DNA of 64,000 nt from an uncultured Chromatiaceae bacterium (GCA_945787555.1 CALZJG010000155.1:24015-88014); one strand, 5' to 3'. Counted from the stretch's first letter, positions 11,481-55,092 are shown. Notes: generated by a model not told the origin, from the letters alone. Numbers and translations are program-made.

Positions 11481-11496
11481 TGGCATGTGCCTTGCA
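11481..11496 (+). promoter_or_regulatory. sigma54 promoter for the PilZ gene
   Basis: TGGCATGTGCCTTGCA (GG-N10-GC with TTGCA). Confidence 0.75.
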
Positions 11497-11583: not shown

Positions 11584-11970
11584 ATGTTCAACGAAAGCCG
11601 GGGAAACATCCGCTTGCCGATACCTAAATATTACACCGGCGGCAGCTTTCATTTAATAGACGGTGAGCGTGAGTATCATTACATCCGCGCCAATGATGTG
11701 TGTGTGTCTGGTGTGGGTCTTGATGTGCCCTCTTCGCTGGATCGCGGCAAAACGGTGAAGCTGCGTTTTGCCATGGAAGGTTGGCGCGCCGATCTGGATG
11801 GCATCGTAATGTGGTGCGCGCGCGCCGATCGCGTGGGCGTAAGCATGCGCAGTTACGAGAACTATCGTGTAGGTATCAGGTTGGATCCTACCCATGCTCA
11901 GGACAACGCCATGTTGTTTCTCACACTCAAGGACAGCTTGGAGGAGCAGCGTCCCGGCCCGCGCGTGTAG
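11584..11970 (+). CDS. Single-domain PilZ protein
   Basis: RGNIR (RxxxR), DVCVSG (D/NxSxxG-like), G.V.WC and YRVGI; AAGGAGG RBS. Confidence 0.7.
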   Translation: MFNESRGNIRLPIPKYYTGGSFHLIDGEREYHYIRANDVCVSGVGLDVPSSLDRGKTVKLRFAMEGWRADLDGIVMWCARADRVGVSMRSYENYRVGIRLDPTHAQDNAMLFLTLKDSLEEQRPGPRV

Positions 11971-12916: not shown

Positions 12917-13315
12917 TCAGCTTCCTTTGCCACGAAAGCGGATAAGCTGACGACGATTCCGTTTGCTGGGGCGTCCGTCGTGGTTAGTCGGGTGCGTCGC
13001 GATCAAGCGACGTTCCTCGGCCACGGCGGCGCGCGTCGCCTGACTGGCGGCGCTTTCCGTGTAGAGCGCCATGGCCTCGCGCGCCGGGCGGCGCGCGCGT
13101 GCGAGTGCATTAACCGTAACGATGTAGCTGTAGTGGCCTTTTCGAATGGTGAGCTCGTCGGCGAGCTTGGTGACATAGGCGGGTTTGACGCGATCTCCGT
13201 TGACATGCACTTTGCCGCCTGTAACCGCTTGCGCAGCCAAGGCACGTGTCTTGAAGAAACGCGCCGCCCACAACCATTTGTCTATGCGAACTTTGTCGTC
13301 GTCTTTAGTGTCCAT
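12917..13315 (-). CDS. hslR: Ribosome-associated heat shock protein Hsp15 (S4 domain)
   Basis: VRIDKWLWAARFFKTRALA...GGKVHVNG; GRPSKRNRRQL. Confidence 0.92.
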   Translation of the reverse strand: MDTKDDDKVRIDKWLWAARFFKTRALAAQAVTGGKVHVNGDRVKPAYVTKLADELTIRKGHYSYIVTVNALARARRPAREAMALYTESAASQATRAAVAEERRLIATHPTNHDGRPSKRNRRQLIRFRGKGS

Positions 13316-26368: not shown

Positions 26369-26674
26369 ATGACCGAAAGAAAAACCTCTACGAGCGAAAA
26401 CGCCACCGCGACCGCGCGAGTGGAAATATATAGCACAGATTTTTGCGGTTATTGCGTGCGTGCCAAGGCCTTGCTCGATACCAAGGGCGTGGCGTACACC
26501 GAGCATGCGATCGACCGTGACGACTCGGCGCGTGCTGAGATGTTGGTGCGCGCCAACGGGCGCCGCAGCGTGCCGCAGATATTCATCAACGGCCAGGGTA
26601 TCGGTGGCTACATGGAGCTGTACGCGTTGGAGCGCTCGGGTGAGTTGGACAGTCTTTTGGTGGCCTCGAGTTGA
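26369..26674 (+). CDS. grxC: Glutaredoxin 3
   Basis: CGYC active site, RSVPQIFI, GIGGY.EL. Confidence 0.9.
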   Translation: MTERKTSTSENATATARVEIYSTDFCGYCVRAKALLDTKGVAYTEHAIDRDDSARAEMLVRANGRRSVPQIFINGQGIGGYMELYALERSGELDSLLVASS

Positions 26675-26734
26675 GGCCCGTACCGGCCGAGCGATGCAGT
26701 ACAATTAGCTCTCCCAATACTGCGGAGACACTGC

Positions 26735-27082
26735 GTGAGTGCGACCATCTATCACAATCCCCGCTGTTCTAAGTCGCGGGAGACGCTGCAGCTATTGCGT
26801 GAGCGGGGTATCGAGCCGACTGTTATCGAGTACCTCAAGCACCCCCCCACCCAACAAGAACTGCGCCAGCTGTTGGTGTGGCTGGGTATGACTCCGCGCG
26901 AGCTGTTGCGCACTAAAGAGAGGGAGTTCAAGGCGTTAGGATTGCAGGACCCCGCCTTGGGCGCCGCCGCACTCATCAAAGCCATGGTCGAACATCCCGT
27001 GCTCATCGAACGACCTATCGTGGTGGCCGATGGCAAAGCGGCGTTGGGCCGCCCGCCGCAACACGTGCTCGACATTCTATAA
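26735..27082 (+). CDS. arsC: Arsenate reductase (glutaredoxin-dependent) family protein
   Basis: IYHNPRCSKSR, HPVLIERPIV, GRPP. Confidence 0.9.
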   Translation: MSATIYHNPRCSKSRETLQLLRERGIEPTVIEYLKHPPTQQELRQLLVWLGMTPRELLRTKEREFKALGLQDPALGAAALIKAMVEHPVLIERPIVVADGKAALGRPPQHVLDIL

Positions 27083-27088
27083 TCCCGC

Positions 27089-27601
27089 ATGCCTTATCGC
27101 AGCGCCATTTCAGCGGCCGTGGTGCGACCTTTGCTGGCCGTGTGTTTGGCGAGTGGCGCGGGCGGTGCGGCTGCCGAATCGCCGGCCTATTTCGGACTCA
27201 AGGGCGGCGTGGTGACACCAGATGTGGTGGGTCTGGACTATGCCATCAACGGTGGTTTGACCATGGGATATGCCTGGGGCCAGGCCGCGCTGGAGGCGGA
27301 GTTCACTGCTACTGTCATAGACGGCGGCACGGATTTCGTGGAGACGTCTTGGCAGCTGACCAGTCTGGGCCTGTATGCCGCCTTGCGTGGCACGGGGAGT
27401 GTGTATTGGAAGGCCCGTGCCGGCGTGATGGACGAGCGCTTGCGCTTCAATACCGTGGGTATCGCTCTTACAGGCGATAACAGTCCATGGTCGTTAGGTG
27501 GCGGTGTTGGGTTTCAGCTGCGCAGTGGGCGGCGCGTGGAAGGGGAGTTGACCTGGCTGGATAAGGATATCTTGTTGTGGAGCGTGGGAGTTTTGTTTTA
27601 G
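27089..27601 (+). CDS. Outer-membrane beta-barrel (OmpA-like TM/porin family) protein
   Basis: Signal peptide, YFGLKGG, amphipathic strands, terminal Phe. Confidence 0.75.
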   Translation: MPYRSAISAAVVRPLLAVCLASGAGGAAAESPAYFGLKGGVVTPDVVGLDYAINGGLTMGYAWGQAALEAEFTATVIDGGTDFVETSWQLTSLGLYAALRGTGSVYWKARAGVMDERLRFNTVGIALTGDNSPWSLGGGVGFQLRSGRRVEGELTWLDKDILLWSVGVLF

Positions 27602-27622
27602 CACTAACGTAGGTGTCGTAGC

Positions 27623-28516
27623 ATGAATCAATACCGCTTAGCTTGGACGCCGGGTGTCATGTTGGGCTGGGTGCTCATGATGGGATGGGCCTCCAGTGTT
27701 GCCGCGCCGGCGACGTTGGTGCAATCCGCCACCCCCACCACGCAGAAAATCATTTATCTGGAACGATTGTTGGGGTCGGTCAGCGGTCGCCGTCTGGCCG
27801 AGAGCGACGACCCGACGGTGCGCCGGCAGCTGAAATTAACGCGCCAGGAATTGGCTGCCGCGCGCCAGGCATGGGAGCAGAATCAAGCGGCGCGCGCCGA
27901 CACGCATGTGCAGAGCGCCTTTGCCGCCATGACCGTAGCCTCGCGGCGCCTGCCCTCCAGCGACGCGACGGATCAGCAAGCGGAAAGGAGCCGTTATCAA
28001 CAATTGCGCGATGGTATCGATGTGTTCCGTCAGGCGCATGCGCGAAATACCCAGCGGCTAAAGGCCACCGAAGGCGATGCCGGGCGCGGCTACGATGTGC
28101 TAGCCGTGGAGAACCTAGTGAGTCAAGCCGCGCAACGCGCGGCGGTGCATGACTACGCCGCGGCCATTGTCAGCCTGCAACAGGCGCAGGCGCTCGTCAC
28201 CGGCGCACTGCGCGGCATGATGCACCAGCGTACCTTGGTGCACGAGCTCGACCTCAATAGCCCCGAGGCGGAATTTGATTACGAGTACCGGCGCTATCTC
28301 GGCTACGTGGAGCTGATCCCGGTGGCCATAGAAGATTTGGCGCCGTCCGAGCAGACCGAGGCCGACATGCAGGGTGCGGCGGAGAAGGCGGCGTGGATGG
28401 CCGCGCAAGCGCAAGACCGGGCCCAGCGGGGAGATCATCCGGTCGCCATTCGCATGCTGTTGGACGCCACCGAGCTGGTGCGCGGCGCACTGCGATGGGC
28501 CGGCGTTAGCATGTGA
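27623..28516 (+). CDS. Secreted all-helical (TPR-like) hypothetical protein
   Basis: Signal peptide; repeated A..A...GD..A helical patterns. Confidence 0.65.
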   Translation: MNQYRLAWTPGVMLGWVLMMGWASSVAAPATLVQSATPTTQKIIYLERLLGSVSGRRLAESDDPTVRRQLKLTRQELAAARQAWEQNQAARADTHVQSAFAAMTVASRRLPSSDATDQQAERSRYQQLRDGIDVFRQAHARNTQRLKATEGDAGRGYDVLAVENLVSQAAQRAAVHDYAAAIVSLQQAQALVTGALRGMMHQRTLVHELDLNSPEAEFDYEYRRYLGYVELIPVAIEDLAPSEQTEADMQGAAEKAAWMAAQAQDRAQRGDHPVAIRMLLDATELVRGALRWAGVSM

Positions 28517-28538
28517 TGCCCCGTCATAAAGGGGACGC

Positions 28539-29303
28539 ATGACCGTGTTTGATTTCTTGTCCCGTTGGAGGCGCCACGCCGCGCCGCTCAGTGACGAGGC
28601 TTGGCGCAGTCTCTGTGGTCGCGTGGCCGTGGTTGAGCATTGGCCCGAGGATGCCTTAGCGCGGTTACGTGTTGTAGTCGACGCCTTCCTGCGTTCCAAA
28701 AGCATTACTGCGGCCGGGACGGCGGTGCTTGATGATGAGCTGCGTGGCTTGATCGCGGTGCAGGCTTGTGTGCCCATCCTCAATCTCAGTCTGGCGGCTT
28801 ACGCCGAGTGGGTGGAAATTATCGTCTATCCGGCCGAATTCATCACCGAGCACGAGGAAGTGGACGAGGCGGGGGTCGTGCATTTGCGGCGCCGTGCCTT
28901 GAGCGGTGAGTCGTGGTCGCAGGGGCCGGTGATCTTATCACGCGAGGAGGTCGAATACTCTGCGCAGGCCTGCGATGGTTTCAACGTCGTCATTCATGAA
29001 TTGGCCCACAAGCTGGACATGCTCAACGGCGATGCCAACGGTTATCCGCCATTGCCACGCGAGATGTCTAGCGCGACCTGGAGCGGGGTGTTTAATCGCG
29101 CCTATGAGGCATTGTGCGCACAGATCGAGGGGGGGGTGGATACCGCCCTGGATCCCTACGGCGCCGAGTGTCCCGGCGAATTCTTTGCGGTGGTGAGTGA
29201 GGCCTTCTTCGAACTGCCGAACGCGCTGCGCGAGGACTATCCCGAGGTCTACGCGCAATTGGTGCACTACTATCGCCAGAACCCAGCGGCAGGCGAGCAC
29301 TAG
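28539..29303 (+). CDS. mtfA: Zinc-dependent peptidase M90 family (MtfA-like)
   Basis: IIVYPAEF, GESW.QGPVILS, NVVIHELAHKLD, YGA..PGEFFAVVSEAFFE. Confidence 0.88.
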   Translation: MTVFDFLSRWRRHAAPLSDEAWRSLCGRVAVVEHWPEDALARLRVVVDAFLRSKSITAAGTAVLDDELRGLIAVQACVPILNLSLAAYAEWVEIIVYPAEFITEHEEVDEAGVVHLRRRALSGESWSQGPVILSREEVEYSAQACDGFNVVIHELAHKLDMLNGDANGYPPLPREMSSATWSGVFNRAYEALCAQIEGGVDTALDPYGAECPGEFFAVVSEAFFELPNALREDYPEVYAQLVHYYRQNPAAGEH

Positions 29304-29337
29304 GGAATACCCCTCTCTGCTAAATAAACAAATAGAC

Positions 29338-29367
29338 AAAAAAATAGCGCTGTCTGGCTGACAGCGC
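29338..29367 (-). terminator. Intrinsic terminator facing the minus strand
   Basis: GCGCTGTC/GACAGCGC stem, 5-nt loop, A7 at 29338-29344 (U7 on the minus strand). Confidence 0.85.
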
Positions 29368-29495
29368 CATCGCTCAAGGAGGGATGAACGTAAAGTTGCG
29401 GACTTCAAAGGAGCAGTGGCGGAATCCCTGTGAGCGATTCGTGGCCACTGGCAACGCGAGTCAGCGTTGCATCGCGCTGTTGCGAGACGCGATCA
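29338..29495 (-). ncRNA. Putative sigma54-dependent small regulatory RNA (~158 nt)
   Basis: The predicted +1 (~29495) lies 2 nt before three abutting hairpins (29493-29471, 29470-29451, 29450-29414), followed by a single-stranded region with two CUCCUU motifs and the terminator. Confidence 0.7.
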
Positions 29496-29505
29496 CGTTT
29501 GCATG

Positions 29506-29521
29506 AGCAGATGCCGTGCCA
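29506..29521 (-). promoter_or_regulatory. sigma54 promoter
   Basis: Minus strand TGGCACGGCATCTGCT (TGGCACG-N4-YTGCW, GG-N10-GC). Confidence 0.8.
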
Positions 29522-29540
29522 GTTGAAAAGTTTAAATAAT

Positions 29541-29553
29541 TATCAACGAGTTA
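29541..29553 (+). promoter_or_regulatory. IHF binding site
   Basis: TATCAACGAGTTA matches WATCAANNNNTTR and lies in an AT-rich tract just upstream of the sigma54 box. Confidence 0.7.
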
Positions 29554-29801
29554 TATTTCTTGTGCGGTAACTCAGGCGGGTCCGATGTTGCCCTGAGGTA
29601 ACAGAAGACCCACCATCATCCACTAACCCATTGCGACCAAAGAAGTTATTTTGTCGCGCATCGGCGACGGGGTAATGGCGGGGAGGAACCATAAAGTCTG
29701 ATACCTAAGCGGGTGGACGGTGAAGGAATCTCACTTGCTGGCCGATACCACGGATAGTACTTATGGGCTGACGTCAGTCATGTATAGCCTCGGGAGACGC
29801 A

Positions 29802-32153
29802 ATGGCTAGCGGTGACAAGGTGGTTTCCTTAGACCCGCGCAGCGGCACAACGCCGTCTGCGCAATCACAAGACCAACGCCTGCTGCAGGAGTGTCGGCAG
29901 CGCGCTGACAAATACCTGAAGGAAACCTTGCAGCGGGTGTTCGACAACGTCGACGACACACTCTTTTCCTTGGCAAACAAGGGTGAAGGTGACGCCGGCG
30001 ACAGCGTGTATTTTGACGCCATGCGAGAAATTCGCATTCAGCGCCAAGATATTACGCAGGCCTATTTCACGGCGTTCGAGACCGGCTACAACGCGCAGCT
30101 GCGCACCGGCACCACATCTACGTCAGCGCCGCGCAATACCGAAGAATTGGGCGGGTTGTCCTTGGTCGATGAGCAAGAATTGGAAGAATCCTTGGCCATC
30201 GACGGTCTGGTCGCCAAGGCCAAGGACCGCTTGCATACCGAACTCCATCCCCTGAGTCAGCGCCTCGACGTGCTGATTAGCAAGGTCAGGATCGACGAAG
30301 ACAGCAACCCCTATGGTCCCGATGTGGTGTGTCTTGCTTTTCGCGACGCTTTTGCACGGATCGAGTTGAAGGTGGAGGTCAAACTGATCATCTATAAGTT
30401 GTTCGATCAGTACGTGATGAAAAGCTTGGGCGATTTGTACGCCGAGTTAAATCTTTTGCTGGTCGATGGCGGTGTGCTGCCACAGCTCAAATTGGCACGT
30501 CCCAAGCGCGAGGCCGCCGAGGAGTCCAAGCGCGCCAGCGGCGCGGATGGCCAAGACGAAGACGAATCCCCCTCGGACGCGAGCGCAGAAGCGGGCGATA
30601 GTGACGTTTATCAAACCTTGCAGCGCTTACTCAATAGCAAGAAATACGGCGCATCAGGTGGCGCGGGCGGGTCGGAAGGTGGGGGCGGAGGCGGCCCCGC
30701 GGGCACGAGTGGCCCGGCCGTGTCTGCCGCGGACTTGTTGCAGAGTCTGTCACAGTTGCAGCGCAACACGTCGCCGGTAGTGAGCGACGGCGAAGTGAGC
30801 CTGGCGCAGATCAAGGACAGTTTGCTGCAAAGCATCGGCGAAGTGCGCGGCAGCGCTATCGCCTTGAATCCCATGCACGATAACACCATCGACGTGATCG
30901 GTATGATCTTCGAATTCATCGTCGATGAGCCCAGTACGCCCGGCCAAGTCAAGGCGCTGCTCAGTCAATTACAGATCCCCATCCTCAAAGTCGCCATCGC
31001 CGACAAGGAGTTCTTCAGCCGCAAACTGCATCCTGCGCGGCGCTTATTGAATGTCCTCGGGCACGCCGGTATCGCCTGGAATGAACGCAGCGAGTCCGAG
31101 CAACAGCGGCGCTTCGAAAAAATGGAATTTGTGGTCAACCGGGTGTTGAGCGAGTTTGAGGACGATCCGGGCATTTTTTCCGAATTATTGGAGGAATTTA
31201 CCACGTTCCTGGCGCAAGAAGGCGAGGAGGTCGACGCGGTCGAAGCGGGCGATGAGGAAGCCACAGCGGAGCAGGAGGAGCAGGCCGCTGTCACGCCTAG
31301 TAAGCAGGCCTTTGAAACCATCGAGCTGCGTCTAGAGGGTGCTGAGATCCCCGAGGTGTTGCGCGAATTCCTGCGCCACATTTGGCGGGCGGTATTGCAG
31401 CGCACCGCGGAGAGCGACGGCGACGACAGCGAAGCATGGCGGCGTCGTGAACAGACCGTCGATGATTTGATGTGGAGCGTGGAACCCAAGATCAGCGGCG
31501 ACGATAGGCGGCGGATGGTGGCGATGTTGCCGCGCCTATTGGATGCCTTGCAGCAAGGGATGGCCTTCGTAGCTTGTCCGCAGGAGGATATCGATCAAGC
31601 CATCGAGGCTTTGCGGGAAATACACTTGCTATGTCTGCGTGGGGAAAAGCCCGCGGTCAAGGCGGTGGCGCCGGTGCGCGAAGAAGAGTTGAATGCAAGC
31701 AGTCAAGACGTCAGCGATATGATCCGTTCCATCCAGCAGGGAATGTCCGATCCCGGGCCGGCGGGTGACGCCGCTGCCGCGGCGTCCACCGAGCACGATA
31801 TGTTGGGCGAGGATATGACCTCCGCGCCGGCTGGGGCGCCGGAAGAGGAAGAGGTGGAGGAGGTATTGATGGAGGATGACTACACCGATCAGGCGCGGGA
31901 TATGAAACTCGGGACGTGGTTGGAGTTCAATATAGAAGACAAGGCGCGGCGCGGCAAGTTAGGGTGGAAGAGCGCGGTCCTGGCCCAATATGTGTTCGTG
32001 GACCGCAAGTACAAAGTGGTGGCGGAAAAAACCTTAGCGACCTTGGCCGCGGATTTACGACAGGGGCGGGTCACGGTGGTGGAAAACGTGGCAATGTTCG
32101 ACCGGGCCCTGGATGCCGTGCTGAACGGTTTGATGAGCGGCTCGGGGCGTTGA
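29802..32153 (+). CDS. DUF1631 family protein
   Basis: YFDAMREIR, LSLVDEQELEE, LQIPILKVAI.D.EFF....HPARRLLN, W...EQTVDDL.WSV, LKLGTWLEF..., MFDRAL. Confidence 0.85.
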   Translation: MASGDKVVSLDPRSGTTPSAQSQDQRLLQECRQRADKYLKETLQRVFDNVDDTLFSLANKGEGDAGDSVYFDAMREIRIQRQDITQAYFTAFETGYNAQLRTGTTSTSAPRNTEELGGLSLVDEQELEESLAIDGLVAKAKDRLHTELHPLSQRLDVLISKVRIDEDSNPYGPDVVCLAFRDAFARIELKVEVKLIIYKLFDQYVMKSLGDLYAELNLLLVDGGVLPQLKLARPKREAAEESKRASGADGQDEDESPSDASAEAGDSDVYQTLQRLLNSKKYGASGGAGGSEGGGGGGPAGTSGPAVSAADLLQSLSQLQRNTSPVVSDGEVSLAQIKDSLLQSIGEVRGSAIALNPMHDNTIDVIGMIFEFIVDEPSTPGQVKALLSQLQIPILKVAIADKEFFSRKLHPARRLLNVLGHAGIAWNERSESEQQRRFEKMEFVVNRVLSEFEDDPGIFSELLEEFTTFLAQEGEEVDAVEAGDEEATAEQEEQAAVTPSKQAFETIELRLEGAEIPEVLREFLRHIWRAVLQRTAESDGDDSEAWRRREQTVDDLMWSVEPKISGDDRRRMVAMLPRLLDALQQGMAFVACPQEDIDQAIEALREIHLLCLRGEKPAVKAVAPVREEELNASSQDVSDMIRSIQQGMSDPGPAGDAAAAASTEHDMLGEDMTSAPAGAPEEEEVEEVLMEDDYTDQARDMKLGTWLEFNIEDKARRGKLGWKSAVLAQYVFVDRKYKVVAEKTLATLAADLRQGRVTVVENVAMFDRALDAVLNGLMSGSGR

Positions 32154-32203
32154 ACGACCTGTCATAGTCTTCTCATCGGCTATTACTCGGCCGTTAGACT
32201 AGG

Positions 32204-32250
32204 TTTGGGGAGGTCACCTCCCTCTAGCAGGGGTGACAGCGCTCCCCAAA
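32204..32250. terminator. Imperfect GC-rich hairpin after DUF1631
   Basis: TTTGGGGAG...CTCCCCAAA outer arms with GTCACC/GGTGAC inner arms. Confidence 0.4.
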
Positions 32251-32449
32251 GGGGTGGGATGGGCAAGGGCGCGGGTGGGATGCCGCTGATTTGTTAGCAC
32301 TTCAACGTCGTCCCGACTTCCCGCCACAGGCGGGAGACGTTGGCAACGCAATGAATTCATTACCGCGTCAATACGTTAGGGGGCGGCGCTGCGTGTATCG
32401 CGAGAGCCACTTAAGGAATCCCCACACATCACAGGCGAGGAGCAGCCTC

Positions 32450-33655
32450 ATGGACATCTCTCTATCCCGTAAGCGCATACTCGATCTCGTTGCAGGGTGT
32501 CTGATGGTCGTCCTGGGTGGAACCGCCTGGGCGCAGGCGGAGCATTGCGTGGCGCCGGGAGTGTGGCTGGACCCCACCTCGGAGCAGCGGCCCAGTCATG
32601 CCGAAATATTGAGTCGCGCCGCTTCGCAACAAGTGGTGTTGTTGGGCGAGCATCATGACAATCGTGATCATCATCGCTGGCAACTACAGGTCATGGCCGG
32701 CCTTTACGCGCGCCGTCCGGATATGGTGTTGGGCTTTGAAATGTTCCCGCGCGACAAGCAGCCGGTGCTAGATCGCTGGGTGGCCGGGGAGCTGACAGAG
32801 CAAGCATTCCTCACGGCCACCGATTGGGAAAACACCTGGCATTTCGACGCCGACTTGTATTTGCCGTTGTTCCATTTCGCGCGGATCAATCGCATTCCCA
32901 TGTTGGCGCTCAATGTGAATCGGAGTTTGCTGGCGCAGGTGCGTGACGAAGGCTGGGCGGGAGTGCCCGCCTCGCGCCGCGACGGGATCACCGATCCCGC
33001 GCCGGCGCAGCGTGAATATTTGGAGTTGCTCGCCGCCAGCTTTATCAGTCACCGCACCCCGGATCATAGCGCCAGCCGTGACATGCGACCGGAGGAGAAG
33101 CGGGCTTTTCAGCGTTTCGTTGAAGGGCAGCAGTTGTGGGATCGCGCCATGGCGCACTCCATCGCCGCCGCGCTGTCTGCTGATCAGCCGCCCTTGTTGG
33201 TGGCGATGATAGGCACGGGACATATGCTGCGCGGTTTCGGTGTCCCGCATCAATTAGCCGATCTAGGCGTAAAGAAAGTGCATTGGCTGGTGCCGTGGGA
33301 CGATCAGTTGGATTGCGGTGACATGCGACCCGGTTATGCGCACGGCGTGTTCGGTTTGGCACCGTCGCTGGAGTCGGAGCAGGAGCCGATGCGGCCTAAG
33401 TTGGGGGTGTATCTCGAGGTCGATGAGGCCGGCGCGGTGCAAGTTGCGAAAATCAGTCCGCACAGCATTGCCGAAGCGCTGGGCATCGAGGCCGGTGATC
33501 GTATCGTGGAAATCGCTGGCCTGAAAGTGGCGCAAGTGGTGGATGTTATCCACGCAGTGCAACGCATGAGCCCCGGCACGTGGTTGCCATTCGTCGTGCA
33601 GCGTGGCGAGCGGCGCTTGGAAATGGTGGCCAAATTCCCCCCCGCGCTGCCCTAG
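32450..33655 (+). CDS. ChaN (haem-uptake/Tiki superfamily) domain protein with C-terminal PDZ
   Basis: VVLLGEHHD, GFEMF, W.FDA.LY.PLF, Q.LWDRAMA, IG.GH; PDZ (LGVYL, SIAEALGIEAGDRI). Confidence 0.8.
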   Translation: MDISLSRKRILDLVAGCLMVVLGGTAWAQAEHCVAPGVWLDPTSEQRPSHAEILSRAASQQVVLLGEHHDNRDHHRWQLQVMAGLYARRPDMVLGFEMFPRDKQPVLDRWVAGELTEQAFLTATDWENTWHFDADLYLPLFHFARINRIPMLALNVNRSLLAQVRDEGWAGVPASRRDGITDPAPAQREYLELLAASFISHRTPDHSASRDMRPEEKRAFQRFVEGQQLWDRAMAHSIAAALSADQPPLLVAMIGTGHMLRGFGVPHQLADLGVKKVHWLVPWDDQLDCGDMRPGYAHGVFGLAPSLESEQEPMRPKLGVYLEVDEAGAVQVAKISPHSIAEALGIEAGDRIVEIAGLKVAQVVDVIHAVQRMSPGTWLPFVVQRGERRLEMVAKFPPALP

Positions 33656-47559: not shown

Positions 47560-48918
47560 TTAGGTGCTGGGTAGGCTCACGGTGATGCGCGCGCCGTTCC
47601 AGCGACTACGGCCGAGGGTCAGTTTGCCGTCGTAGAGTTGCACTATGTCTTGCACGATGGCCAGGCCGATGCCATGGCCGGGGGTGGCAGGGTCGTGGCG
47701 TACGCCGCGCTGCAGTGCTTCGCGTGCCAGAGCCGCGTCGATGCCGGGGCCGTCGTCTTCCACTTGCAGCTCCAACTCGGGGTGAGTCTCACCGGGAACG
47801 ACGCGTGCCGAAACCGCGACTTGCTGACGTGACCACTTGTAGGCGTTGTCCATGAGATTGCCCAGCAGCTCCAATAGGTCGCCTTCGTCGCCGTGGAACA
47901 GCACCCCTTCGGCGGCGTTGAGGTGACATTGCACATGCTTGTCGGCGTACACCTTGTTGAGCGAGGCCTGCATTTTGGTGGCGATGCGGCTCACCGCCAC
48001 CGGTGCGGCCAACGGGAAGCGGCCCGAAGTGGCGGCGCGCTGCAATTGATAATCGACGATTTCATTCATGCGTTGCACTTGCTCGCTGATGACGTCGTTG
48101 AGACCTTCGCAGCTGGGGTTGCCCAGCGAGCCGCGTAATACCGCCAGCGGCGTCTTCAGGCTGTGCGCCAAGTCACTCAAGGTATGGCGATAGCGTTCCA
48201 GGTGATCGCGCTGGCTGGTGAGCAGCGCGTTGATGTTATCAGTGAGAGTGCGCATTTCCTTGGGGTAGCGGCCTTCGAGCTGATGCTGTTGTCCCGCTTC
48301 GATGCCGGATAGATCGGTCGCCACCTCGCGCATCGGCGCCAGGCTCCAGCGCAACACACCGCCCATCACGGCCAACAACACCAGCGCGGCGCTGCCCAGC
48401 CAACCCAACAGGCGTCCGCGAAAATCGCTCACTTGGGCGTAATAGCCGGCCATGTCCTCGGCCACCGAGAAGGTGTAGCCCTCGCTGGCCTCCTCACTCA
48501 AGTCCCAAGTCACGCCTAGGCCGAAGGCATATAGTTCCTTGCCGTCCGCCGCGAGCAAGCGTTGATAGCGGTCCGCGCCCGAGCTGAGGCCCGAGAGCAA
48601 GGCGGTGTTAAGGCCGGACATGGAGGGCGATTGCCAGCGCTGGCGGCCGTTGTTGCTGCTGACTTCGGCATAGAGGCCACTGCCGGGTGAGGCATAGCGC
48701 GATTCGGGCAAGGAGGCCGGCATATGGAGTTGGCCGTCCTCGCCGAGTTGTTCGGCGGCGGCGATCAGTCCCACCGCGTGGGCTTGTAAGCGTGACTTGA
48801 GGGCTTCCTCGGCACTATCGCCGAAGGCGCGATCCAAGGCGTAGCTGGTCAGACTCAGGAACGCGGCGAGGACGACACTGCCCGCCAACAGCAGGCGGCT
48901 GGTGAGCGAGAGGATCAA
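47560..48918 (-). CDS. PhoQ/CarS-like sensor histidine kinase
   Basis: Two TMs, HAMP, DLAHSLKTPLA, GNLMDNAYKW, VEDDGPGI, GHGIGLAIV. Confidence 0.9.
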   Translation of the reverse strand: MILSLTSRLLLAGSVVLAAFLSLTSYALDRAFGDSAEEALKSRLQAHAVGLIAAAEQLGEDGQLHMPASLPESRYASPGSGLYAEVSSNNGRQRWQSPSMSGLNTALLSGLSSGADRYQRLLAADGKELYAFGLGVTWDLSEEASEGYTFSVAEDMAGYYAQVSDFRGRLLGWLGSAALVLLAVMGGVLRWSLAPMREVATDLSGIEAGQQHQLEGRYPKEMRTLTDNINALLTSQRDHLERYRHTLSDLAHSLKTPLAVLRGSLGNPSCEGLNDVISEQVQRMNEIVDYQLQRAATSGRFPLAAPVAVSRIATKMQASLNKVYADKHVQCHLNAAEGVLFHGDEGDLLELLGNLMDNAYKWSRQQVAVSARVVPGETHPELELQVEDDGPGIDAALAREALQRGVRHDPATPGHGIGLAIVQDIVQLYDGKLTLGRSRWNGARITVSLPST

Positions 48919-49598
48919 CTACCGTTCCGTTCCAGCGTCAGGCGGTAGCCACGCCCGCGCAGGGTTTCGATAGGGTTGAGCTGATTTTCGGGATCGAGCT
49001 TACGGCGCAGTCGGCCGACGAAAACTTCGATGACATTGCTGTCGCGCTCGAAATCCTGGGCGTAGATATGGTCGGTGAGGTCGCTCTTGGAGACGACTTC
49101 GCCGGCGTGCAACATGAGGTATTCAAGCACTTTGTATTCATAGGCGGTGAGTTCGATGGACGTGCCGTCGAGTGTGACGATGTGACTGGCGGTATCCAGT
49201 TCCACCGGCCCACAACGCAGCACCGGTGTCGCCCAACCGGAGGCGCGCCGCACCAGCGCACGCAAGCGGGCGAGTAATTCTTCCATTTGGAAGGGCTTGA
49301 CCAGGTAGTCGTCGGCGCCTGCCTCCAGACCCTCGACCTTTTCCTGCCAGCGCCCGCGCGCGGTGAGGATGAGTACGGGATAAGTCTTGCCGGCGCTGCG
49401 GGTGTGCTTGATGACGTCGATGCCAGAGAGTTTGGGCAGTCCCAAATCCACGATGGCAGCGTCCACCGGAAATTCCGTGGCGTAGTACACGCCCTCTTCG
49501 CCGTCCTTGGCGCTATCTACGGCATAGCCTTCCTGATGCAGGCGATCGCTGAGTTGCGAGCGTAGCGCCTCTTCGTCCTCCACCACCAGTATCCGCAT
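48915..49598 (-). CDS. PhoP-like OmpR-family response regulator
   Basis: MRILVVEDE, IVDLGLP, LTARGRWQEKVEGL, DSNVIEVFVGRLRRK, TLRGRGY. Confidence 0.93.
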   Translation of the reverse strand: MRILVVEDEEALRSQLSDRLHQEGYAVDSAKDGEEGVYYATEFPVDAAIVDLGLPKLSGIDVIKHTRSAGKTYPVLILTARGRWQEKVEGLEAGADDYLVKPFQMEELLARLRALVRRASGWATPVLRCGPVELDTASHIVTLDGTSIELTAYEYKVLEYLMLHAGEVVSKSDLTDHIYAQDFERDSNVIEVFVGRLRRKLDPENQLNPIETLRGRGYRLTLERNGS

Positions 49599-49648
49599 GG
49601 TTGCTCCAATTTTAGGGCGAGATCACGCTACAACATACCATGATTATC

Positions 49649-54682: not shown

Positions 54683-54750
54683 GTTCGAGCTTGTTCCCGT
54701 CGGTGGGGTGTACTAGAGTGAAGCCATCGCACCGTCTCAACGGAGGGAAC

Positions 54751-55092
54751 ATGAAGGTCAGAGATTTGTTGCGTGATTGGCAACAGGGCGCGAGTTCGCG
54801 TTTGACCGCGCGTGATTTTCATGTGCAGTTGCCGTTGCACGATGCGGCGCGCGTGCTGGCGCTGACCGAGTTGTTTCCGGGTCGCACCGAAACACAACTC
54901 ATCACTGAGCTACTGTCCGCCGCGTTAGATGAGTTGGAAGCGGCGTTTCCCTATGTGCCAGGCCAGGGCGTGGTATCGGAGGACGACCACGGCGACCCCA
55001 TCTACGAAGACAGTGGGTTGACACCGCGCTTCTATCGTTTGACGCAGCGTCATGTGCAAGCCTTGGAGCAAGAGTTGGCGGGGCACGATTGA
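54751..55092 (+). CDS. Conserved small protein (often labelled 'pilin assembly protein')
   Basis: MKVRDLL..W...A..RL, AARVLAL.ELFPGR, AALDELEAAFPYV.G, D..GDPIYED.G.TPRF; GGAG RBS. Confidence 0.75.
   Translation: MKVRDLLRDWQQGASSRLTARDFHVQLPLHDAARVLALTELFPGRTETQLITELLSAALDELEAAFPYVPGQGVVSEDDHGDPIYEDSGLTPRFYRLTQRHVQALEQELAGHD

Follow-up and report, generated by a model that had tools for sequence, protein, structure and literature searches.

The window analysed here, a stretch of 64,000 nucleotides from the genome of an uncultured Chromatiaceae bacterium, very likely carries on its minus strand (29338-29521) a real and hitherto uncatalogued small regulatory RNA (sRNA) gene, as judged from its sequence and from comparison with its relatives. 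We consider it probable that this is a stand-alone gene encoding a trans-acting regulatory RNA of ~158 nt, and that it is one of an uncatalogued family from a single clade of uncultured Gammaproteobacteria. The sequence comparisons presented below give good support to the logic of its promoter and to the existence of an RNA that is structured, non-coding and under selection. What is new is the conserved sRNA family; the concept of sRNA action was already known and is unchanged by it. The family has an unusually well-defined promoter and a striking seed.

To our knowledge, sigma54-dependent sRNAs are few, and each of those described (Qrr, GlmY/Z, NrsZ, CrcZ) is the output of an important signalling pathway. 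The family offers a handle on an enhancer-binding protein with a GlrR/QseF-like site, a candidate entry for Rfam, and a ready-made regulatory module to annotate in metagenome-assembled genomes (MAGs) of groundwater, soil, sediment and bioreactor origin; what DUF1631 proteins do may also become clearer from the constant pairing of their gene with the RNA. Because the hosts are uncultured, experiments will need heterologous systems.

Genomic location and features of the sRNA gene

The sRNA gene is flanked by a Peptidase_M90/MtfA gene (28539-29303, +), its upstream neighbour, and on the other side by a DUF1631 gene (29802-32153, +). A preliminary description of this DNA had pointed to an intrinsic terminator on the minus strand with no minus-strand CDS to terminate, and this was confirmed, both flanking genes being encoded on the plus strand. 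All the sequence features that it listed are present on the minus strand between 29521 and 29338. The features of the gene and of its predicted promoter region are compiled in Table 1.

Table 1. Features of the predicted sRNA gene and of its promoter region, in coordinates of the window.
Feature	Position	Strand	Remarks
Predicted sRNA transcript, ~158 nt	29338..29496	-	+1 placed at ~29495-29497 from promoter geometry
Hairpin 1 (AUCGCG/CGCGAU)	29471..29493	-	MFE fold; no counterpart in the relatives' alignment
Hairpin 2 (GCAACGC/GCGUUGC)	29451..29470	-	MFE fold; specific to the window lineage
Hairpin 3 (CAGUGGC/GCCACUG, inner GAAUC/GAUUC)	29414..29450	-	MFE fold; inside the covariance model match
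First CUCCUU	29408..29413	-	Unpaired; kept in no relative
Seed hairpin CGUUCA[UCCCUCCU]UGAGCG	29371..29390	-	8-nt loop at 29377-29384, contains CCUCCUU
Intrinsic terminator	29338..29371	-	GC-rich stem of 11-12 bp, 5-nt loop, U7; stem 29371-29343
Sigma54 -24/-12 element TGGCACGGCATCTGCT	29506..29521	-	1 mismatch to TGGCAC-N5-TTGCW
IHF-like site TATCAACGAGTTA (consensus WATCARNNNNTTR)	29541..29553	+	In an AT-rich stretch, ~32 nt upstream of -24
Proximal degenerate palindrome TGTTAC-N6-GCAACA	29586..29603	.	Read from sequence; predicted binding site
Distal palindrome CGTCGC-N6-GCGACA (YGTC-N10-GACR)	29652..29669	.	Starts 148 nt upstream of the box

Distribution of the family and genetic linkage

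Relatives of the RNA were sought by blastn and nhmmer against MtfA loci, by a seed-pattern scan of metagenomes, and on ten contigs encoding DUF1631 proteins of the same clade. The closest MtfA in 185,579 species genomes was 56% identical, and the best matches of the MtfA-based scan were mostly Betaproteobacteria lacking the RNA; only two loci, L002 and L003, carried it, and it was absent from 78 other MtfA loci. A scan of the JGI metagenomes for the exact 20-mer seed returned a single contig. Among 5.8 billion proteins, the closest foreign DUF1631 protein was 52% identical, and a DUF1631 clade of ~60 proteins from uncultured Gammaproteobacteria showed 45-52% identity to the window protein, followed by a tier at or below 37% that includes Pseudomonas, Ectothiorhodospira and Thiohalobacter. 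Besides the window, 12 distinct homologous loci were found in metagenomes and MAGs, and the RNA was present in every locus of the clade for which DNA was available. The family appears restricted to this one clade, since the sigma54 box, the palindrome and the RNA were all absent at the Pseudomonas locus (nadC-DUF1631-ampD) and at one locus of the 37% clade.

The members were sorted into four groups: group A (~160 nt; L002, L082, L003, L089, L081, L087, L092 and L093), group B (the window), group C (L094), and group D (~130-140 nt; L083-86, L088 and L095), with a predicted RNA length of ~130-185 nt over the family as a whole. Their common layout starts with one or more 5' stem-loops and a large two-tier stem-loop; a single-stranded linker then leads to the C/U-rich seed and the terminator.

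In all 12 loci the RNA gene precedes the DUF1631 gene and is oriented away from it. Its upstream neighbour is not fixed: some loci have mtfA there and others arsC. The linkage of the RNA gene is accordingly to DUF1631 and not to mtfA, and the interval between mtfA and DUF1631, originally given as its setting, describes only some of the loci. This invariable divergent linkage, with the activator sites in between, and the position of the window terminator, 35 nt from the mtfA stop codon, would also fit an action in cis, by which divergent or convergent transcription tunes DUF1631 or mtfA and the RNA product is incidental. We regard such an action as quite improbable: the upstream neighbour is not constant, a strong terminator halts the RNA before the upstream gene, selection acts on the RNA sequence and on its stems, which is unexpected for an incidental product, and the seed pairs poorly with the DUF1631 translation start (-11.6 kcal/mol). 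A stand-alone gene whose RNA acts in trans is the reading that we prefer.

A conserved gene order was observed around the RNA gene (window 26369-33655; L083, L087-L089, L092-L095): glutaredoxin, ArsC-family protein, (OMP beta-barrel, a 300-aa protein of unknown function, MtfA), sRNA and DUF1631, continuing after DUF1631 with a ChaN-like haem-binding/PDZ protein, a FAA hydrolase and GTP cyclohydrolase I. The OMP beta-barrel, the 300-aa protein and MtfA constitute an insertion that is present in some lineages only.

Copies of the group A RNA (L003 3750-3911) with ~95% identity or more were also found on contigs of runs X8, X11, X19 and X22, whose sources are metagenomes of air, activated carbon and rock, plus one run labelled by organism name instead of as a metagenome. 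The occurrence of copies on air, activated-carbon and rock contigs indicates that the carriers are environmentally widespread, and one carrier may be in culture or host-associated. The runs containing the L003 copy were all DNA, and a run search for either the window copy or the L002 copy found no RNA run containing it.

Promoter architecture

The sigma54 box proposed in the preliminary description was found as stated, with a single mismatch and the canonical spacing between the GG (-24) and GC (-12) dinucleotides. Such a box is by itself unremarkable in 64 kb, the window containing 8 one-mismatch matches against 3.4 expected by chance, and the case for it therefore rests on the comparison with relatives. 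The box gains its weight because box, palindromes, RNA body and terminator recur together, in the same place, in 12 related loci. A sigma54 box is located at the equivalent position in 12 of 12 loci, and another was recovered from a metagenome contig. Its most frequent form among the relatives is TGGCA[CT]ATCGNTTGCT, their boxes reading TGGCA[CT]-N5-TTGCT and variants.

Every family member combines the sigma54 box with at least one YGTC-N10-GACR palindrome within the 260 nt upstream of it, a combination encountered in none of the 78 other mtfA loci. The palindromes of the relatives take the form YGTC[T/G]C-N6-G[A/C]GACR. Most members possess two, 65-66 bp (~six helical turns) apart, with starting points ~93-115 and 158-180 nt before the box; L083 has one clear site. 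In the window the two palindromes are 66 bp apart and the pair lies roughly one helical turn nearer to the box than in the relatives. The distal palindrome is presumed to be the site of an enhancer-binding protein, and the proximal one, which displays a symmetric GTC>GTT / GAC>AAC change, may be a second binding site. Within the 633 kb of DNA examined the strict palindrome occurs 16 times, 15 of them in promoters of the sRNA. The one strict palindrome outside these promoters (12995-13012) is located inside an S4/Hsp15-like ORF (12917-13315, -) and was set aside as probably due to chance, a single occurrence being about the number that chance predicts.

An AT-rich tract precedes the sigma54 box in the family loci. 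Judged by the IHF consensus WATCARNNNNTTR of PMC3045617, the window, L003 and L088 each have a strict motif ~32 nt ahead of the box, and the AT-rich DNA of the other members contains only near-matches.

Searched in every frame for the GAFTGA, ESELFGH and Walker-A signatures, the 64-kb window contains no gene for an enhancer-binding protein, which places the putative activator elsewhere in the genome; its identity and the inducing signal are presumptive. A histidine-kinase gene (HATPase_c) was observed at 47563-49622 (-), with adjoining ORFs of 235 and 409 aa, which together are a possible two-component system. This locus is not an obvious regulator of the sRNA, since it lacks a sigma54-activator signature.

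At window 29720-29760, in the interval that separates the DUF1631 start (29802) from the palindromes, a further motif was observed, which reads CTATCGGCCG...GGATTCTTT on the minus strand and is kept in all relatives, at equivalent positions in L002, L003, L082, L083, L087, L088, L092 and L094. It is unlike a standard sigma70 -35/-10 pair and may be a promoter or operator of the DUF1631 gene.

RNA structure and purifying selection

The window RNA (162 nt) folds with a minimum free energy (MFE) of -66 kcal/mol, corresponding to z = -4.6 against 200 dinucleotide shuffles. The three abutting hairpins noticed at the outset are present in the MFE fold; they are not shared with the relatives, whose 5' domain differs, and the only close relative recovered from the window lineage was a near-identical 151-nt contig with one substitution. 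Hairpin 3 is the architectural equivalent of the large two-tier stem-loop of the relatives. A covariance model, R1, built from the eight group A relatives with the window left out, matched the window at 29338-29454 with E = 6.7e-9 and L094 with E = 1.6e-7.

Selection on the stems was scrutinized in group A (8 sequences), in which 96% of the cells form standard pairs. Both sides had changed in 11 of the 39 pairs, against 4.8 +/- 1.4 in shuffles, none of 500 shuffles reaching 11, and when the partners were slid by 1-3 columns only 0-2 pairs changed on both sides remained. The compensatory changes fall within three elements: the 5' stem-loop, the large stem-loop (both tiers) and the terminator, the last with CG<->UA exchanges. 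The seed hairpin is invariant in this main group, and its stem is therefore neither supported nor contradicted by covariation. The covariation expected of the hairpins was thus found for the stems of the relatives and does not extend to the three 5' hairpins of the window itself. On the long contig X19 the body of the L003 RNA is ~95% identical or more, and the adjoining promoter spacer cannot be aligned at 80%; conservation of the RNA body beyond that of the spacer fits purifying selection on the RNA itself.

Indels of 1-2 nt occur throughout the alignment of the relatives and exclude a conserved ORF on either strand. This bears on the plus-strand 40-aa ORF (29384-29506), which had been named as a possible functional unit: the part of the window that it covers is the part not conserved in the relatives, and the indels break its frame. 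That the whole feature is non-functional, a chance sigma54-like box next to a bidirectional mtfA terminator, or that this ORF is the actual product, is in our view very improbable. The box alone is within chance in the window and the ORF does exist; the compensatory pairs and the frame-breaking indels speak against coding, and box, palindromes, RNA body and terminator are found together in 12 related loci, some of which lack mtfA. The comparative data largely refute this explanation.

The proposal of a structured sRNA driven by a sigma54 promoter is consequently strongly backed by the promoter architecture, the compensatory pairs, the invariant seed and the lack of a conserved ORF. From the same comparisons we infer that the window sRNA is transcribed in dependence on RpoN and an enhancer-binding protein.

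Seed and terminator

CCUCCUU is the anti-Shine-Dalgarno (anti-SD) heptamer of the 16S rRNA 3' end, with CCUCCU as its core. In the family, a 22-nt sequence, CGTTCATCCCTCCTTGAGCGAT, is identical in 9 of the 12 distinct members, with flanking proteins that are only ~50% identical. The seed block CGUUCAUCCCUCCUUGAGCGAU is identical across groups A and B, where it folds as a hairpin of 6-7 bp with the loop UCCCUCCU; group C has GUUCAUCCCUCCUUGUGCGA, and in group D the seed is replaced by AUCCCCCUUUGAGC or UACCCCCC(C)UAUUUAUC. The seed hairpin is weakened or different in L094, L083, L088 and L095. The nucleotides on either side of the CCUCCU core are as strictly conserved as this core, which suggests an extended and specific pairing. 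In group A the large stem-loop carries a further C-rich motif, UCCC, in its apical loop. Every member ends in a U7-U8 tail; base-pairing sRNAs of the Hfq-dependent class bind Hfq via the poly-U tail of the terminator and internal U/A-rich sites.

The preliminary description had reported twin anti-SD motifs within an unpaired region of ~45 nt. Both copies of CUCCUU are indeed present in the window; no relative shares the 5' copy (29413-29408), and the second (29381-29376) is located within the 8-nt loop of the conserved 6-7 bp hairpin rather than in an unpaired region.

Proposed mechanism and predicted targets

The following mechanism is proposed. An NtrC-family (response-regulator-type) enhancer-binding protein, encoded outside the window, would bind the two YGTC-N10-GACR palindromes, IHF would bend the DNA at the IHF-like site, and sigma54 RNA polymerase would initiate ~12 nt past the -12 GC. 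Transcription would stop at the strong intrinsic terminator, at a distance of 35 nt from the stop codon of mtfA, giving an RNA of ~158 nt, and a short hairpin immediately before this terminator would display the octamer UCCCUCCU in its loop. Base pairing of the anti-SD loop with ribosome-binding sites of the AGGAGG type in target mRNAs could then block translation initiation, with the flanks GUUCA... and ...UGAGCG conferring target specificity. The targets, the direction of regulation and any dependence on a chaperone such as Hfq are presumptive.

Pairing of the seed with translation starts was predicted for all starts of the window and for the conserved neighbours in 9 loci, and no neighbour emerged as a consistent target. 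The best duplexes within the window involve the start regions at 11584 (-25.7 kcal/mol) and 54751 (-25.2 kcal/mol), the background being -13.4 +/- 3.6. The search covered only 64 kb and the two best sites belong to small ORFs without Pfam assignment; this target prediction is therefore exploratory and uninformative. Two observations on these sites are recorded. A sigma54-like box, TGGCATGTGCCTTGCA, is located at window 11481-11496 (+), ~90 nt upstream of the Pfam-less 128-aa ORF (11584-11970, +) whose ribosome-binding site, UUAAGGAGGGUUGGAG, gives the best predicted seed duplex of the window. The start codon of a Pfam-less 113-aa ORF (54751-55092), the second-best predicted target, lies within the sequence CUCAAcGGAGGGAacAUGAA (window 54732-54758, +), which matches the reverse complement of the seed UUCAUCCCUCCUUGAG almost in full.

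The RNA could also be real and sigma54-driven and mainly bind or titrate a protein or the ribosome, as a 16S-mimicking damper or a GlmY-like sponge or decoy, instead of acting on specific mRNAs. This would account for the exact 16S-type CCUCCUU of the loop, a seed that would fit most Shine-Dalgarno sites rather than select a few, and for a promoter similar to that of the gene for the decoy GlmY; moreover, the 3' module resembles RF02278, which is growth-inhibiting in E. coli (PMC5688073). Motifs for protein binding that recur from loop to loop, as GGA would, are absent from the RNA, and the strict conservation of the flanks of CCUCCU suggests an extended and specific pairing, so that we judge titration unlikely. 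Equally doubtful is the idea that the RNA is the output of a GlrR/QseF-like two-component system sensing envelope or nutrient status in a lineage without GlmY/GlmZ, and serves as a near-global translation brake that mimics the 16S rRNA 3' end (AUCCCUCCUU vs AUCACCUCCUUA). If so, it would represent a chromosomal 'toxic sRNA', kept silent by the zero basal activity of its sigma54 promoter and freed on a specific signal, and the strict linkage to DUF1631 could point to the function of that widespread family. The regulation of specific target mRNAs in trans is the action that we favour for the RNA.

Comparison with known sRNA families

A search of the whole window and of 9 related loci found no Rfam family at its gathering threshold; at permissive thresholds (E <= 10 on the locus) the only matches were weak ones of the 3' module. 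In L003 this module scored 23.3 bits with RF02278 (threshold 50), 22.7 with RF02837 (49.5) and 20.5 with RF00519 (41), and the window scored 14-16 bits with the same three. Membership in any of them was rejected, the scores being far below the gathering thresholds. Unlike RF02278, RF02837 and RF00519, the family described here has a large structured 5' domain of ~100 nt, and it differs from them in genomic context and taxonomic class. We know of no description of a sigma54 promoter with activator palindromes for these three families. Their likeness is to the 3' module: in RF02278 (the Betaproteobacteria 'toxic' sRNA; Burkholderia ncS03/05/27/62), RF02837 (anti-hemB; ncS04) and RF00519 (MmgR/suhB), as here, a short hairpin bears a CU-rich anti-SD sequence in its loop and a GC-rich terminator comes directly after it (PMC5688073, PMC1950547). 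CU-rich unpaired regions are noted for the RNAs of the toxic-sRNA, anti-hemB and mmgR types, RF02278 being named 'toxic' for the growth inhibition caused by its expression in E. coli (PMC5688073). The anti-hemB consensus CCGCuUCuCCUCCCUGaGCGG is much like CGUUCAUCCCUCCUUGAGCG of the present family. NcS25 of Burkholderia was considered as a sigma54-dependent relative and rejected, its own promoter lacking a sigma54 motif.

The seed logic also has analogues among unrelated sRNAs. RsaE/RoxS of the Firmicutes and sX13 of Xanthomonas pair with G-rich Shine-Dalgarno regions through C-rich unpaired loops; they have no sequence relationship with the family and other types of promoter. Repeated loop GGA motifs of the Csr/Rsm type were found neither in the window RNA nor in its relatives, and there was no Rfam match to such RNAs.

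With Qrr1-5, NrsZ and CrcZ/CrcY the family would share transcription by sigma54 RNA polymerase together with an enhancer-binding protein of the response-regulator type, which is putative here. The Qrr sRNAs repress their targets via pairing at ribosome-binding sites (PMC13501541). In contrast to these RNAs, the family has neither the Qrr core, nor the CA-rich Crc/Hfq motifs, nor the NrsZ repeats, and its genomic context is another; the locus search gave no Rfam match at E <= 10 for Qrr, NrsZ or CrcZ. The lack of Rsm-type GGA repeats and of a Qrr core noted in the preliminary description is hereby confirmed.

GlmZ activates glmS through pairing with an anti-SD-like inhibitory element, as opposed to the anti-SD seed found here. 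RF00128 and RF00083 (GlmY/GlmZ) gave no match even at E <= 10, and the family further differs from GlmY/GlmZ in having two palindromes versus three, no adjoining glrK/glrR and a non-enterobacterial host clade. The likeness lies in the promoter logic alone, that of a stand-alone sRNA gene with a sigma54 promoter, palindromes and an IHF-like site: glmY and glmZ are preceded by a sigma54 promoter and several TGTC-N10-GACA (GlrR/QseF) palindromes, with IHF sites between the palindromes and the promoter (PMC3045617). The palindromes of the present family, of the form YGTC-N10-GACR, are like the GlrR sites, and L087 and L094 carry the exact TGTC-N10-GACA.
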